Assembly (NCBI GenBank): GCA_001938485.1
Contig: MQRK01240735.1
Span: forward strand, 1-58,221
Length of the DNA stretch: 58,221 nucleotides
From: Girardia tigrina
Taxonomy: Eukaryota
Direction: 5' to 3'
The position numbers and the translations under genes were made by a program. The notes under the pieces are model-generated. The model made no database searches. It saw only the letters and a list, made by a program, of their open reading frames with translations, and was not told the origin of the DNA. Below, one piece after another: positions 41,111 to 52,740 of this stretch (positions within the stretch are counted from its first letter, which is position 1; each line of letters opens with the position of its first letter).

Positions 41111-44100
41111 GTCGATAATAATCGACTATTATCGGGTGATAATTCGATCAGAGCGGCCGATGTCGCGAATTCGATTATCGATACGAGGATCGACGATTTC
41201 GGTCGACCGTTGCCGCCGTTGTCGGAATCATTCGGCGAGAAAATCGATGCCGGTGAACTGGATTCCGCGAGGACGGAAAGGATTTCGATGATTTTACAAT
41301 TCGCGGTGAGATTCGATTGGACAATCATCGGATCGGATTTGTGGTAGAGGCGGTAGAGGAGCGCGATATAAAACTCGAAAAATAATTTGAAAAATTGTAA
41401 AAGATTTAATAAAATTTATTTACAACAATGGCATTTATCAACAAAAACTGTGTATTAAAACAAAAACCAACTTTGATAAAGATTTAATTTGCATAAAAAA
41501 AATCATTTGATTTGTTTGAGAAAATCATTTAATTTGTATGCGAATTTGACTGAGAAAATTTGTAATTATAAATAAGAAATATCGGATTTTAATATATATT
41601 TAATATTTATAAATACCGATTATAATTTTGTGTCACTACAAGAGGGTTCACTGTATATATTTGTCTGAAATCGGTCATTCTCAATTGTCGGTCAAACTCA
41701 AAGTTTACTATTCGGTGGTTGTAAATTTAGGAATTTATGTGCTTCTTATTTTTTTATATCTCTTTCTTCTTGTACAACTCTTTAATAATTCCATGTATGC
41801 GTATTGTTTTGGGTAGATCTGAACTAAATTAAACTTGGTTTGAATGCATGACAGTTTTTTATTCACTTGTACCACTTATTTATTTTTATATTTTTGTTAT
41901 GTGATTTTTATATTTTTGAAAAGATTATAAGATTCTTTTTTGTGAAAGAAAGACGATGCTCGATAGAGGAATTGGTTAGGGAAAGTCCATGAAGTTTAAA
42001 TGTTTAAGAATTAATGTTTTTATTATTATTATTTATTTAATTTTCTTTTTTATTATTTAATTTAATTAGCAATTGCGGATTTAATTGTTATTCATTTATG
42101 AGGTGTTAATTTAAATTTTTATCTCGCCTGAATAATTTATTATTTTTTAATTTAAGGGATAAAATATTTTTATGTTAATATGCTTATTCAATATTTTAAA
42201 ATTAAAAATGATATAATAAAACAACTATTAAAAAATCAAAAACGTTGTAACACGCGAAAAGTTTATTTTCAAAAACAATGTCTAATTGATAATATTCAAA
42301 CAAAATATTTATCAAAAAAGTAAATATTAAATATTTCAAATAATTAAAATATCTAATATCCAACACTCCCACCAGATTCGTCCACAGAAGAATCTGAATC
42401 CACAATGTAATCATTTAGATAAGGCGGTCTTCGTCTTTCTCTACTAGGCCGACTTTCCAATAATTGTTCCTCTTGTGTTTGATTGTTTGGTAGTGATGCA
42501 GTTTCCTCCATATCCATATAGTATGACTTGGAATTTTCAACCAAGTCAGGCTGTCTAGGTCGAATGTCTGCGATATGTCTTGGACCACAAAATCCGTTGC
42601 AATTTANNNNNNNNNNNNNNNNNNNNNNNNNNNNNNNNNNNNNNNNNNNNNNNNNNNNNNNNNNNNNNNNNNNNNNNNNNNNNNNNNNNNNNNNNNNNNN
42701 NNNNNNNNNNNNNNNNNNNNNNNNNNNNNNNNNNNNNNNNNNNNNNNNNNNNNNNNNNNNNNNNNNNNNNNNNNNNNNNNNNNNNNNNNNNNNNNNNNNN
42801 NNNNNNNNNNNNNNNNNNNNNNNNNNNNNNNNNNNNNNNNNNNNNNNNNNNNNNNNNNNNNNNNNNNNNNNNNNNNNNNNNNNNNNNNNNNNNNNNNNNN
42901 NNNNNNNNNNNNNNNNNNNNNNNNNNNNNNNNNNNNNNNNNNNNNNNNNNNNNNNNNNNNNNNNNNNNNNNNNNNNNNNNNNNNNNNNNNNNNNNNNNNN
43001 NNNNNNNNNNNNNNNNNNNNNNNNNNNNNNNNNNNNNNNNNNNNNNNNNNNNNNNNNNNNNNNNNNNNNNNNNNNNNNNNNNNNNNNNNNNNNNNNNNNN
43101 NNNNNNNNNNNNNNNNNNNNNNNNNNNNNNNNNNNNNNNNNNNNNNNNNNNNNNNNNNNNNNNNNNNNNNNNNNNNNNNNNNNNNNNNNNNNNNNNNNNN
43201 NNNNNNNNNNNNNNNNNNNNNNNNNNNNNNNNNNNNNNNNNNNNNNNNNNNNNNNNNNNNNNNNNNNNNNNNNNNNNNNNNNNNNNNNNNNNNNNNNNNN
43301 NNNNNNNNNNNNNNNNNNNNNNNNNNNNNNNNNNNNNNNNNNNNNNNNNNNNNNNNNNNNNNNNNNNNNNNNNNNNNNNNNNNNNNNNNNNNNNNNNNNN
43401 NNNNNNNNNNNNNNNNNNNNNNNNNNNNNNNNNNNNNNNNNNNNNNNNNNNNNNNNNNNNNNNNNNNNNNNNNNNNNNNNNNNNNNNNNNNNNNNNNNNN
43501 NNNNNNNNNNNNNNNNNNNNNNNNNNNNNNNNNNNNNNNNNNNNNNNNNNNNNNGACAGTCTTCGTTTTATTAAAAGCTCAGATGAAGCCTTAGTATTTA
43601 ATTTTTCGCGATCTGAGATTGTTGTGGTTACCCACGAAACTACTGACTTATTATCCGATTTTACTATCACACTCCTTAAAACCCATTTCACATATAAGTT
43701 AAAACCATTTACAACTGCTTCTAGTTCTGCTACATTAATATGTCTAGAATCATCAGTTTTCTCAACCATGATGCGTCCTCAATTATGTTTCCTTTGACTT
43801 CTAACACCGCACCAATGGCTATTGAACTTGCGTCGCACCATATAATACCTTCCATGCAGTCATCAATAGCCCATAAACCTCTGCAAGAATCACTCTCCCT
43901 CACTGTCTTTAAAACCCATTTAATCTTCTCGAATAATTCCTCGTCTAGCTTTTCATCCCACCTTCCCTCACTAAGTCGTTTAAGATATGAACATGACAGA
44001 CGTAGCCAATTAGCTACCGGATGTATTCCTACTAATTGTCCACATAACGAATATAACTCACGACGTGAAATTGATTCTACATCCAGCTCATCCCTTACCT

Positions 44101-45250
44101 GATTGTCCCTCTTCCATCTCACTACATGTTGGTCCTTAAAGACTTTCATTCCTAAAACTCGAACTTCGTTGGCTTGTGACAGATTTTCCGGTTTCTGACA
44201 TTTGAGACCGAAGTTATTGAACACTTTTTCTACTTCTTCAACAGAAATGAAACTTTCATTTACATAAATATCATCAATATAAGAGTCAGTATTTTCACGC
44301 ATCCTAGTGTCAGAGTTCAGAATCCACCTGACGATTTTGGTCATTATAGTTGGTGCAATGTTTAAACCAAAACCCATCTTAGTTAAAGCATATTTCTTGT
44401 TATTAATGATACAAGATTGGTAACGCCACATCTCCTTATGAACATGAATCTGCATGTACGCCTCTGACAAATCAAGCATTGAAAAAGTCGAACCCCTACG
44501 TCGCCAATCGCGGAGCTTTTCTAAACATATGTCCGCAGAACCACTATAAACGTCCACGTAATTGTTTAATTTTCTAAAATCAAAAATGGGTCTAATCTTG
44601 GACTTATTAGCCTGTAATATTCCAAATATCGGTATGGATCCTATCGATTTACCCATTTCTTTCTCATTGTACTCGATTAGATAACCCTTTTCTACCCATC
44701 CGTCTAAAATTTTCAACGTTGTAACATCTTTTAATTTGTTGTCATTAAAAACTGATTGACGATTCGGAAGATGACTCGGAGCCTCACTTTTCCAATTCCA
44801 TTTAATCGACCAATTTTCCATAAACTCAATTTCAAAATTATGCTTTTTTATACTAACAAGAGGCGCATCCGATGCAGTACAACTCAAGCTACTATCTNNN
44901 NNNNNNNNNNNNNNNNNNNNNNNNNNNNNNNNNNNNNNNNNNNNNNNNNNNNNNNNNNNNNNNNNNNNNNNNNNNNNNNNNNNNNNGATCCCTAGACCAT
45001 ACGGCAAATGTTCCATGACCGAACATTCCACCCTAATGATCCTACCATTTATATTCAACTGCACTTCACCTGAACCCACTCTAACACCCTTTCCATTCGC
45101 CAAAACCATATTTTCTCCGCCAAAAAACAACATACAATCACTAACTACCCCTTTTAAAACAGCAGTTTTCGAACAACCCGAATCAATCAACGCTGTGGCT
45201 GACCTGTCATTTACGGTGACGATCATCGTCGGCAACACCTGCAACTGTGA

Positions 45251-45292
45251 AGGGAGAGAGCCGGCGCCTACAAACTCCCCTGTTCGTTTCCC
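45251..45292 (-). promoter_or_regulatory. Putative -1 ribosomal frameshift signal (gag to pol)
   Basis: G GGA AAC at 45292-45286 just after the gag CCHC and before the gag stop; the -1 frame is the protease ORF; downstream GGGGAG...CTCTCCC stem. Confidence 0.7.
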
Positions 45293-46002
45293 GACCGACA
45301 ATATTTTGCGATATGACCCGGTTTCTGACATTTGTAGCATATTGTTTGTCTGTTTGATTGCCACTGAGAACCCTTATGATGATTACTTTCCTTCGATTCG
45401 GTGTCTCTCTCACTATGAACACAGGGTCTTTTCTGAAGATTTGCTCTTGGTTTAGCGAGTTCGCCCTGACCACCGGAACTCCGTGTTTCTTTGTTGTTGT
45501 TTCCGTGTTTATTGCTGCCATTGAACCCTGTAATAAACCCTTTTTAATCCCTAAATACCTGCGGCTATATTCGATCATTTCGGTCAGGGGTTGGTCGCCG
45601 GCCCGTTCCAAATCCACCTGCAACTCGAAAAGCCATGAATGCAGCCTTTGTTAGATCGTCGACCTTCGTTGCTAACATCTTCACCTGAGACGCATATTCA
45701 TCGATAGTCTCGCCATCGTGATACTGTAAGTTTATTAATTGACTGTACGCAGAACGTCTAGTCAGGCCGAACGAATTGTTTAATATCTTGAAGAACCGAT
45801 CGCAGCTGCTTTGCGTCTTCTCGTCCGATTCCATATAGATGTTCATTGCAACCCCCGATAGTGAAAAAGGGAGATACGGGGCTGGATCAGTAATCTTCTG
45901 GATTTTCATGATCATTTCAAATTTCTACTGCCAAATCTCGAAATTGATGCTTCCATCAAATTTCTCTAAAAACTCCAAAACGATTTTCATATCATTCATT
46001 AT

Positions 46003-46014
46003 GCCCGGATAGCT
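46003..46014 (-). promoter_or_regulatory. Putative atypical primer-binding site complementary to tRNA-Lys(UUU) nt 1-12
   Basis: Plus strand GCCCGGATAGCT abuts the 5' LTR directly; no TGG-initiated PBS present. Confidence 0.6.
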
Positions 46015-47099
46015 TGTAACACACGAAAAGTTTATTTTCAAAAACAATGTCTAATTGATAATATTCAAACAAAATATTTATCAAAAAAGCAAATATTAAA
46101 TATTTCAAATAATTAAAATATCTAATATCCAACAGACGTTTTTAAAAATAAAATATTTTTTAATGTATCTATTAAATATCATAATATTAAAAATGTCAAG
46201 AAAACAAAAATATTAAATATTTATTTATAAATAAAAATATTTTTAATAAGCAATTTTAAAAAAAAACTTTGAAATAAATTTTGAAAATAAAGTTTAAATA
46301 ATTTTTGAAATAAATTTTCAGGATTTTAAAAATTAAATCGAAAAGAATTTAATAGATTAATTTGGGTCGAGATAATTAACAGGAAAATTTGTTTTAAAGA
46401 TGTAAATTGTTATATAAATAAATTTTGGTATTAAAAAAATGAATTCTGATATTGAGGTTGCAACCACTTCTCACATCATTTTTGGACAGAATAGTGATAA
46501 TTAAATTCATAATTGCCATGGGCAATTTTTGAATTTATTTTATGATCAATGTATTGATCAAAAATACTAAAAATAACTATTATTCTGAAATATTTTTGTC
46601 TTAACCGTTGAAAGTTTTGGTTTTTCAATTTCAATTTGCCAATCTGACTTTGTAATATTTATTCGAAAAAATCCAATATTTATTATCATTTCCAAGTTGA
46701 ACTCCATTTACCGAAAGATTTTTATTATCTCAACTACATTTTTGAATTCATCGTTATTAATCAAAGATTCATTACCAATTTTATAACTGATAATCAACGA
46801 CACATTTATCATAGTTGCTCTAATACGATTAACTAAACTACTATCGGGGTATCATAGAATATCAGACGATTTACCCTTTTGATTGTTGCCAATAAAAAAC
46901 AAAAAAAATTACTGTGATATTATATTTATAATTTTTTTATTTGGTTGAATTTGAATATTTTTTTGTTAAACAGCAGTTGAATTGTGTTAACAATACATCA
47001 TTATTTAATGTAATACGTGTGTTTATTTATGGGACTTTTACAATCAACAGTAAAAATCAGTTTATAATATAGTTATCCTTTGGTAAACTGATTTTTACA

Positions 47100-50544: not shown

Positions 50545-50862
50545 GGAACTATTCAAAAAAAAAATTGTTCAAAAGCTAATAATCTGTATTTTAGTTCAAA
50601 ATAATTTTTATGAATGTTGATTGAAAATGTTATTTACAAAAATTATTTATTTTTTTAACGAGTTATTTATGTCAAAAAATATGTTAAGTTTTTTTTAAGA
50701 AAAAACTTTAATATATAAAATATAATTGTTTAAAATAATTGTTTTAAATAATTAGCGAAAGCTAATGACACAATTTAATTTAATCAATAAAAAATATATT
50801 CGTTATTTATTCGTTCATTCATTATTTATTCTCGTTACTGGTAATTCCAAAACGATAACAAA

Positions 50863-52160
50863 ATGGTGTCAGAACAAAAAATAGAAGCCGATTCCGATTG
50901 TGGACAACTCCTTCCACTTGAATCCAAATTCCATTTGAATCGAATCACTAACAAAACTCTTCGAGGATTCTGTGAGGCTATCAAAAACATCATCGTGTTC
51001 ATTCGGGACTTGATTTGTAAAGCCAGTGTCGCTGAAGAAGAGGACTTCTACATATCGACGTCACGAATACCTATTGATGACCTGATCACAAATAATCGAG
51101 TAGCAAAAATGCTCAAAGAAGCCGACGATAAATTATTGAAATCTCTTAAATCCGAAAAATCTCAGGACACCGAAACCATCGCAAGTCTCCAACACCGATT
51201 CCGTTTCATTCGAGCTTTCCTTCTTTGGACGATGGTCAATAAAAAATTCCTCTAAAACTGTCAATCGAAACTCCAGAAGGACTCGACGTTTTCCGAAGCT
51301 TCCAAACATCTAATCGAATTGAAAGGTCTAATTGAACAAATGAAATCGCTCATTGGAAACGGAGAACCAGTGGGACCCAGCAAGAAAAATTCCTGGAAAA
51401 AACCGTATGGTCTCTTCGGATTCGAACCGTATCTCAATCAACCGCTCTTAGTACCCGCGATTCACCGCTGTGCCGGTATCGAAGAGCGCCAATCGTATAA
51501 TGGAATATTTCGAAAAATTGATCTACATCAATGACATTCTGATAATCGATGTGAACTCGGAGATATTTCCCGCGTGGGACTTCATCCAACATTTCGGTCG
51601 GTTCGGTTGCCAAGGCGCTGAATCGAACTGTGTCCTGACCCGATTGTTATTGCTCACATTTTACATTCTTTTCTTTTCGTCGAATTGTTCTCCTTCGTTC
51701 ATTCTCAATTCGGTGTCGTCTATCGATTCCGTCAACCACTACCACAATCAGAACAACAGCAAAATCGATATCATTAAATCAAGTATTCGGCAATTCATTC
51801 GATTGACGTGCTGGTTGGAAATCGAATCGACGATTAAATTGGACGAGAAACTCGCGATTTTTGTCGCAGCGTGTGTCGATAATCTGTTCCACATTCCGAT
51901 TACTCATTGTCTGAATAGATCGCGCCAAAGAAACTGGAGTTGATAATAGACGCCAATTGGGACCTGTATGACGAGTGTATGAAGGTCGATCACATTCTCC
52001 GCTCGTTAATCAATCACCAGTCGATCAATAATCACTCGCCAAGCGTCACCAATCACACACACTCGCAATGCCACAACAACAACAGAAACCACAATCACAA
52101 TCACAGCCACTGTCACTCACTCGAGGAAAGATTTGATGAAGAAGAATCTGATGAAACCAA
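50863..52160 (+). pseudogene. NAA35: Captured NAA35/Mak10 (NatC auxiliary subunit) internal fragment with stops and frameshifts
   Basis: KASVAEEEDF (human KAAVFEEEDF), RVAKMLKEADD (RVTGMLKDVED), GFEPYLNQPLL (GFEPLVNQRLL), CVLTRLLL (CVLSRSLL), HCLNRSRQR (HGHNRARQR), LYDECMKVD (LQDEAEKVD), all colinear; GC-richer than flanks. Confidence 0.85.
50864..50874 (+). promoter_or_regulatory. Primer-binding site, probably tRNA-Leu
   Basis: TGGTGTCAGAA three nt after the 5' LTR; matches the recalled tRNA-Leu(CAA)-type PBS TGGTGTCAGAAG. Confidence 0.7.
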
Positions 52161-52509
52161 GTATGTAATTCCAAATTATATAATAAATATCAGACTAAAT
52201 TATAAAAATATATATTATATCACAAATAAGTACACAAAGAATACAATGAAAAGAATGAATATTCCTCACACAACTTTTTCAAATCAAATAATAAAAGAAA
52301 ACTTAATTACAGATATCAAGTCCTTAGTCGAATTCTTCAATATATCTAAAATCTCAGATGAATTATTTTATTCTGTCACTAACATTTCTTTTATGAAATC
52401 AATGTATCCGATAAAGACATTTGTAATTTTTAAAAACTTATTATGTATAAGATCAAAATCAAAAACAGACTCACCGTACGAAGATTCGATCATTGGTAAA
52501 TCTTCACTC

Positions 52510-52740
52510 GTATCTTTTCTATTTAATTTCAATTTAAGGACATGTGCACTGACATTACCTTTAAAAAATACAACTGAAACCTTATACAAAGCAGTCATAG
52601 AAAAAATAAATTTTCCTTACTCAGTTGATCTTTTAATCACAATGGGTCATAAAATCATAATTAAATCTAATGCTCTTCTATCAAATTATTTTACAACGGA
52701 TTTAAAAACTATACAAGTCTCGATTAAATTTCGCGGGGGC
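52510..52740 (+). CDS. Ubiquitin-like domain at the N-terminus of Gag
   Basis: 77 aa VSFLFNFNLRTCALTLPLKNTTETLYKAVIEKINFP...LLSNYFTTDLKTIQVSIKFRGG aligns by eye with ubiquitin (TIENVKAKIQDKEGIP, LSDY, TLHLVLRLRGG). Confidence 0.65.

Follow-up and report, generated by a model that had tools for sequence, protein, structure and literature searches.

Fragments of the host genes NAA35, plastin and BBS9 in one slot ahead of the capsid gene of a Girardia tigrina LTR retrotransposon family

The window, a 58,221-nt stretch of the Girardia tigrina assembly (contig MQRK01240735.1), contains a 6.7-kb Gypsy-type LTR retrotransposon on its plus strand, and our analysis of its relatives showed that one slot ahead of the capsid gene took up pieces of the host genes plastin, BBS9 and NAA35 in turn. 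The NAA35 piece found in the window probably rides along as an exchangeable passenger, without working as an acetylation factor. Judged from sequence, the slot seems reasonably likely to be a translated, disposable N-terminal extension, which a host deubiquitinase would cut off at a Gly-Gly and in which in-frame pieces of host genes would be tolerated.

The element is bounded by a 5' LTR (50550-50860, with its first 15 nt degenerate) and a 3' LTR (56931-57238), and an intact GGAAC target-site duplication flanks the pair at 50545-50549 and 57239-57243, as the initial annotation had noted. The two LTRs differ by 8 mismatches in 295 aligned bases, and the initial 15 nt of the 5' LTR depart from the TGTTGTG start of its family. 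The mismatches are unevenly spread, with 7 in columns 1-130 and 1 in the last 172, which suggests recombination or conversion. The primer-binding site (PBS) TGGTGTCAGAA, which we take to be of the tRNA-Leu type, overlaps an ATG (50863-50874) that opens the cargo frame. It is followed by a remnant of an earlier plastin/fimbrin-like cargo (50875-50929), the NAA35/MAK10 coding fragment (50939-52110), the linker ORF of the family (52120-52512), a predicted ubiquitin-like domain (UBL; 52513-52740) and Gag (52741-53582), in which the motif CX2HX9CX3C (CHCC) lies at 53478-53531. The pol region (53817-56803) encodes protease, RT (YIDD at 54791), RNase H and integrase in the Ty3/Gypsy order; the last three were matched by RVT_1 (E 5e-19), RT_RNaseH (E 4e-15) and rve (E 2e-11), and the protease by a weak match (E 0.056) together with a DSG motif at 53844. 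A short purine-rich tract (56922-56930) precedes the 3' LTR. The paired LTRs, PBS, target-site duplication and domain order all agree with Ty3/Gypsy. The window copy is dead: the cargo is broken by a stop near 51255 and frameshifts near 51495 and 51932, gag by a frameshift near 52870 and by stops, and pol is broken in the same manner.

An ATG at the LTR/PBS join is a generic feature, the corresponding 16-nt pattern occurring at 321 sites against 16 for the reversed control; no parts of the window's family were found at any of the 29 loci (L104-L132) read from the list of pattern sites. We found no tRNA genes in the window. A second, unrelated LTR element occupies 42245-46134 on the minus strand, where a pair of 121-nt direct repeats (98%) flanks gag/pol-like ORFs.

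CsRn1-like Ty3/Gypsy elements are defined by a CX2HX9CX3C Gag motif in the available text of their description (PMC2582038), and the window element resembles that clade (PwRn1, AgCR) in this motif, a DSG protease, a YIDD RT and the PR-RT-RH-IN order. However, its PBS begins TGGTGTCAGA, whereas CsRn1 has a tRNA-Trp site, and its target-site duplication is 5 bp, as it is in the second NAA35 copy checked (C214207), against 4 bp in CsRn1. Because the PBS and the 5-bp duplication do not fit, we kept the element out of the CsRn1 clade. The N-terminal cargo slot with its UBL-GG is a further difference.

The window cargo matches host contig C20255 (locus L004) at 91.9% over 50939-52110 in sense orientation, which confirms the NAA35 homology proposed at the outset; pieces of the window also give matches to Mak10 (E 1e-3) and to TPR_NAA35 (E 8e-3) that do not reach the curated cut-offs. 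Searched at the DNA level, the same genome returned 39 matches. The host locus has an open 449-codon frame that runs on through C119818/C93807 to a stop and matches human NAA35 residues 120-478 (E 7e-30); the cargo corresponds to positions 314-~1494 of this locus, and the upstream Mak10 exon lies on C173081. Uptake of host NAA35 by the LTR element was thus upheld, but the captured piece measures ~1.17 kb (50939-~52110) and not the ~1.3 kb first given. As the initial annotation described, the LTR/PBS join creates an ATG at 50863 whose frame is that of the first NAA35 piece, and the UBL-Gag ORF shares the frame of the last NAA35 piece. The intron-free state of the cargo, which had been cited among the signs that the cargo integrated with the element, turned out to be uninformative: the cargo starts ~57 nt inside the large terminal exon of its parent (the exon start being placed from a spliced retrocopy), and missing introns prove nothing because the cargo sits within this single exon. 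For each of the three cargos, NAA35, plastin and BBS9, the captured piece falls within a single uninterrupted host ORF, and introns are thus no guide to RNA capture.

Other NAA35 sequences were observed in the genome. A spliced, decayed retrocopy fragment on the minus strand of C189838 (L032 6339-6970) joins the upstream exon to the large terminal exon; it sides with the parent at 21 of 22 common changes and is an undated, weak outgroup. The upstream (Mak10) exon occurs twice in tandem on the minus strand of C173081 (L033 7693-8025 and 8369-8803), which could be a duplication or an assembly artefact, and C222879 carries an isolated NAA35 piece of 92 nt (L039 6276-6367) with 98% identity to the host gene.

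The NAA35 cargo stands behind the same LTR in seven non-twin contigs, two of which have a common flank, giving six insertion sites; the supposition that the cargo integrated along with the element is supported. Misassembly was ruled out by the six distinct 5' flanks with cargo and by the junctions common to copies. Private breaks were found in six of the seven NAA35-bearing contigs counted and an internal deletion in the seventh, and one copy retains only the 3' part of the cargo (L004 637-1494). A stop common to C201981 and C241706/C163403 was considered as a sign that a dead copy had spread and was rejected, since the two have the same 5' flank and represent one site; they are counted as two copies in the NAA35 substitution counts given below. 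The host NAA35 gene was represented in each of three other runs by a single contig that aligns from 50939 to 52074-52117 and whose ends leave into host-gene sequence. Among the contigs listed from three runs of unknown or guessed-RNA type, none bridges an NAA35 junction; a DNA contig at the 3' junction has fewer than 31 nt on the cargo side. Neither observation bears on the capture either way.

Intact donor ORFs were found in the host for NAA35, for a plastin-like protein (L028, C207187; four CH stretches, CH E 2e-42) and for BBS9 (L134, intronless; PHTB1_N E 2e-86). In the host genes L004, L028 and L134 the coding sequence runs uninterrupted over very long stretches, at 41-48% GC and 75-108 CpG/kb, and the window is mostly 20-35% GC. 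Pieces of all three occupy the same slot in sense orientation. The 76 nt that precede the NAA35 cargo in the window consist of the PBS and the plastin remnant, 55 nt that are 87% identical to the host plastin-like gene and do not match NAA35; from 52120 onward the sequence is the family's own ORF. The usual relative has the PBS, at most 0.9 kb of plastin (L028 1476-2374), a 195-nt His/Asn-rich segment and then the same linker and Gag, and the identical plastin-to-segment join is present in 29 of the 54 contigs examined. In other relatives a piece of BBS9 is joined to plastin, and in C233622 BBS9 is followed by 42 nt of plastin and then by the 3' part of NAA35, so that the slot holds plastin, BBS9 plus plastin, or BBS9 plus plastin plus NAA35. 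The remnant suggests that the NAA35 version would have replaced nearly all of an older plastin cargo. Alignments overlap by 3-14 nt at five types of cross-gene junction, a property of LTR-mediated retrocopies. No family copy with both ends read passes from PBS to UBL without host sequence.

The ~195-nt His/Asn-rich segment (L050 695-888 and about 40 other contigs) lies in frame between the plastin cargo and the linker. A host donor for it was not found among 40 of 43 candidate matches that were scored, and those read were element-like copies; the segment is possibly an older cargo.

Codon phase was measured locally at every junction, and the 5' flanks were checked, and separate insertion events thereby verified, for contigs in which the LTR start is present. 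Of 12 junction types present in at least two contigs, 11 keep the frame; the single-locus junctions do so in 4 of 17 cases (p 5e-4). The 11 types comprise five ATG-to-plastin joins, ATG-to-BBS9, BBS9-to-plastin, plastin-to-segment, a shortened linker, NAA35-to-linker and a long remnant-to-NAA35 join. Of the four in-frame single-locus junctions, three are cross-gene switches, and only 1 of 14 single-locus rearrangements that bring in no second host gene is in frame. Where the sequence switches from one source to another, codon phase is kept at all nine junctions; chance matches of 6-8 nt are in phase at a rate of 0.41-0.53, which gives p 3e-4 to 3e-3 for nine of nine. The count leaves out an ATG-to-plastin 1567 join, present in two contigs of which only one is in frame and taken as private variants of type 1558; it also omits minor private shifts where plastin meets HN and HN meets UBL, and gaps of more than 120 nt. 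The twelfth multi-contig type, a short remnant-to-NAA35 join, is shifted at three sites (C219208, C178657 and C214207), where the ATG frame closes after 23 codons. The plastin-remnant/NAA35 junction thus carries a net frameshift at three of the six NAA35 sites and is in frame at only two sites and in the BBS9 recombinant. These three shifted sites are the main fact against a strict in-frame slot, and they would have to rely on helper Gag, on re-initiation or on a loss between short repeats that happened repeatedly.

Comparison of the NAA35 copies with the host gene separated private changes (N 100, S 47, stop 5; omega 1.0; 9 private frameshifts) from near-fixed changes, defined as those in at least 80% of the covering copies (N 19, S 27, stop 0; omega 0.33). 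The 27 near-fixed silent changes compare with 14.7 expected from their own mutation classes (p 2e-4), and the excess has p 0.016 once 8 silent changes are dropped as host-side. The NAA35 stem thus comprises 46 substitutions without a stop or a common frameshift inside the cargo, against 5.3 stops and frameshifts expected (p 0.005), and the plastin stem has none in 67 changes against 9.7 expected, under an equal indel rate for stem and post-insertion mutation. GC>AT changes outnumber AT>GC by 36 to 4 among the near-fixed and by 104 to 22 among the private changes; from this resemblance, the near-fixed changes probably arose mostly in the element. Three other runs have one common letter, different from that of the window, at 21 of the 23 cargo sites displayed, which likewise points to changes on the cargo side. 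In plastin, private omega is 1.01 and the near-fixed changes (N 41, S 26, stop 0) give a stem omega of 0.55, with one in-frame deletion in 28 copies; frameshifts common to small groups comprise 4 types in 3-5 contigs and 6 in pairs, in a set from which haplotig twins were partly removed. BBS9 has too few changes to judge selection. The stem values of 0.33 and 0.55 are below the prediction for a purely passive linker; possible causes are selection against extensions that fold badly, residual differences between alleles, or genuine use. The same shared-versus-private test applied to the element's own parts gave no significant silent excess (UBL, p 0.28; Gag core, p 0.38).

The initial annotation had regarded the cargo as a capture accident now decaying and had proposed dN/dS of cargo and parent as a check. 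Capture and decay are both supported, the private omega being that of decay. The word accident understates the case because the cargo was amplified to six sites after an intact stem of 46 substitutions, and because NAA35 took the place of an older cargo in a slot that three host genes have filled.

The product of 52513-52740 ends in IKFRGG immediately ahead of the CHCC Gag. A Pfam search gave no ubiquitin match for the window domain (best, Sde2_N_Ubi, E 0.09), a word-index search with the linker and UBL region gave no match, and a single-sequence model (pLDDT 51) gave no clear match in two fold searches. A PDB sequence search returned UBL4A at E 0.99, and the ESM Atlas placed ubiquitin families at 0.82-0.84 for the domain, which serves as a lead only. 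A profile built from 9 homologue segments scored the window domain, minus its last 6 residues, at 19.8 bits, against a maximum of 14.9 for 1994 scored shuffles, and hhalign against three true ubiquitins gave a probability of 91.7. An AlphaFold model of a family copy from a 21-row alignment reached a pLDDT of ~86-94 across the domain, and ubiquitin-fold chains made up the 46 Foldseek rows displayed for this model; the alignment contained true ubiquitins, so the model leans to a ubiquitin fold and is not independent of the profile result. The domain is predicted to be a beta-grasp, ubiquitin-like fold, although it is only 10-22% identical to its ubiquitin-fold matches. Once four unrelated chance rows are set aside, its C-terminal di-Gly is kept in 22 of 25 family copies; it is also among the few invariant or near-invariant columns of 21 sequences with 20% mean identity. 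In ubiquitin fusions, processing is signalled by a free GG motif at the C-terminus. The remark in the initial annotation on a device that would define the Gag N-terminus proved to be its important part, with a predicted UBL-GG directly before Gag.

A search of 1.84 billion representatives with the UBL+Gag frame of a family copy returned 14 matches, of which 5 matched the Gag domain DUF7041 at E<0.01. The motif [RK]xxGG lies 18-40 aa ahead of the Gag motif in 12 of the 14, the others being one fragment without the region and one representative without the motif, and it is kept in 15 of 15 further relatives, some of them near-duplicates. True ubiquitin precedes Gag in two of the representatives (E 1e-22 and 4e-23); it was identified in P0006, P0010 and P0019 (E 1e-22 to 2e-24). 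One predicted protein, P0012, has a PBS-type MVSE, an LRRC47-like piece (E 3e-19), ubiquitin and Gag. These metagenome homologues are known as gene predictions, at the protein level alone. In P0003/P0017 a CNOT1 piece follows a PBS-like NGVRS ahead of UBL-GG-Gag, and a DIS3-like part further upstream may have been joined on by the gene prediction. Among outside homologues, many have leaders that are AT-rich and lack a recognizable host domain. In several of P0019-P0033 the predicted frame stays open from a point upstream of the PBS-like peptide, across a low-complexity leader and on into UBL-GG-Gag, which would fit translation of the leader itself.

Ubiquitin-GG also precedes other ORFs in the same genome. 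A near-canonical ubiquitin-GG is in frame before a DUF1759 (BEL/Pao-type) Gag at L198, L201 and L211, a layout also found outside the assembly in P0034; at L197 and L218 an in-frame HSP90 piece lies upstream of ubiquitin and a coiled-coil ORF downstream. This survey (L195-L224) scored 150 of 3429 first-look candidates and read 30 loci, some of which are ordinary ubiquitin genes. It is possible, though we would not bet on it, that several unrelated LTR lineages (CHCC-Gag Gypsy and BEL/Pao-type) independently put ubiquitin-GG before Gag and obtain mature capsid through host deubiquitinases. The arrangement would make a translated 5' cargo bay, refilled serially with in-frame host mRNA (plastin, BBS9, NAA35, HSP90, LRRC47 and CNOT1) that is kept since the cargo helps the RNA pass as host.

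For the window family, we infer RNA-level capture, translation from the PBS ATG, cleavage and cargo neutrality from the arrangement of the sequence. A ~0.9-kb plastin piece would have entered the slot first; template switches at short common sequences would then have swapped in BBS9 and NAA35 pieces, with repeated trimming of the 5' end. The NAA35 version may have replicated for some time with an intact frame and then spread to at least six sites, every copy decaying afterwards. One polyprotein, cargo-linker-UBL-GG-Gag, would begin at the first AUG after the LTR; by analogy with ubiquitin-fusion processing, a host deubiquitinase cut after GG would free Gag, whose N-terminus would then be independent of the upstream content, and template switches onto co-packaged mRNA would survive if the frame was kept. 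A rival reading is plain serial capture with no constraint from translation, in which a phase bias of microhomology gives in-frame joins and helper proteins spread the copies. The 5' shifts at three of the six NAA35 sites, the plastin frameshifts of small groups and the 41-53% of chance microhomologies that are in phase all suit it, and chimeric non-autonomous retrocopies undergoing further cycles are described in the available part of PMC5131818. Against it stand the preponderance of in-frame joins among shared over single-locus junctions, the ATG frame kept by all five ATG-to-plastin types and ATG-to-BBS9, and stems of 46 and 67 changes free of stops and frameshifts, and we regard it as unlikely.

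Selection at the RNA level, which appears no more probable than unconstrained capture, is compatible with the disposable slot: a host-like, GC- and CpG-rich 5' segment might aid export or translation, or blunt small-RNA silencing because targeting the cargo would hit the host gene, and the UBL would protect Gag. The cargo indeed has 43% GC and 68 CpG/kb against 26-33% GC and 14-20 CpG/kb in UBL, gag and pol, every family copy with both ends read has host sequence between PBS and UBL, and a camouflage effect is reported for maize TEs in the part of the preprint available to us (bioRxiv 10.1101/777037). Nevertheless, the GC>AT bias of the stem changes erodes this host likeness, the 5' part has been repeatedly trimmed, and many outside homologues manage with AT-rich leaders. 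Less probable still is a UBL that stays on Gag uncleaved, binding ubiquitin receptors, for example, and leaving the cargo as a floppy N-terminal tail. Its low identity to ubiquitin-fold matches means that recognition by deubiquitinases is not assured, but conservation of the di-Gly across 21 such divergent sequences and the established role of a free C-terminal GG argue for cleavage. We retain the translated, disposable extension as the preferred reading.

Gag of the yeast L-A virus depends on NatC, and the initial annotation had raised the cargo as a capsid N-acetylation cofactor. A role of the NAA35 fragment in N-acetylating Gag or in acting on host NatC draws some support from its stem omega of ~0.33, the lowest among the cargos. 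The idea is not supported, however: plastin or BBS9 fills the slot in most relatives, and one copy keeps the 3' part of the cargo only. The element does not carry the full-length scaffold that binds NAA30, NAA38 and the ribosome; by our estimate the cargo lacks roughly the first 140 and the last 240 NAA35 residues and represents an internal half of a non-catalytic protein. In the accessible text of PMC7608589, Naa35 is described as the auxiliary subunit that acts as a scaffold, and NatC as modifying N-termini that begin with Met during translation, whereas cleaved Gag would start with Ala-Pro. Because the fragment is an internal scaffold half, the cargo is interchangeable with unrelated genes and Gag would have this start, we consider a NatC role very improbable.

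Capture of genes by LTR elements usually costs the element its own genes, and a cleavable ubiquitin-like spacer would explain how this family could take in and translate host coding sequence and still make a normal Gag. If true, the slot would be a standing source of exon-shuffled, expressed host fragments, with a parallel in pestiviruses, and the several cargos in one slot of one family offer a simple passenger-versus-camouflage test of captured-gene retention. Our literature search, which covered titles and the beginnings of abstracts and left subscription journals and Repbase reports mostly outside, found no natural ubiquitin-Gag fusion in LTR retrotransposons and no ubiquitin-GG-Gag layout with a serially refilled in-frame slot; with this coverage, a prior description is possible.

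The ubiquitin-like insert of the pestivirus BVDV acts as a cleavage signal. In cytopathic pestiviruses, as far as the consulted portions of PMC13517609 and PMC8310069 describe them, a ubiquitin-like unit likewise stands in a polyprotein before the protein whose N-terminus it would define, and host RNA pieces adjoin it; they are, however, sporadic variants of an RNA virus without reverse transcription. LTR elements are already known to capture mRNA, and pestiviruses to carry ubiquitin inserts next to host RNA (PMC13517609, in the same portion). LTR-mediated retroposition in animals and the maize element Bs1 cited with it (Tan et al. 2016, PMC5131818, in the excerpt seen) also show partial host coding sequences inside LTRs, short common sequence at the joins, multi-gene chimeras and further rounds of retroposition. 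The retrocopy there replaces part of the element ORFs, whereas gag and pol are retained here, and one fixed slot is refilled serially with the frame into UBL-GG-Gag mostly kept. In contrast to the pestiviruses, the unit here belongs stably to a retrotransposon lineage, has diverged, and is found again in unrelated elements. Ubiquitin-ribosomal protein fusions and Sde2 are also comparable: their ubiquitin fold, which lies at the N-terminus and ends in GG, releases a protein whose N-terminus is new. No variable sequence precedes the fold in these host genes, whereas in the window family the fold is internal and separates exchangeable cargo from the capsid protein.
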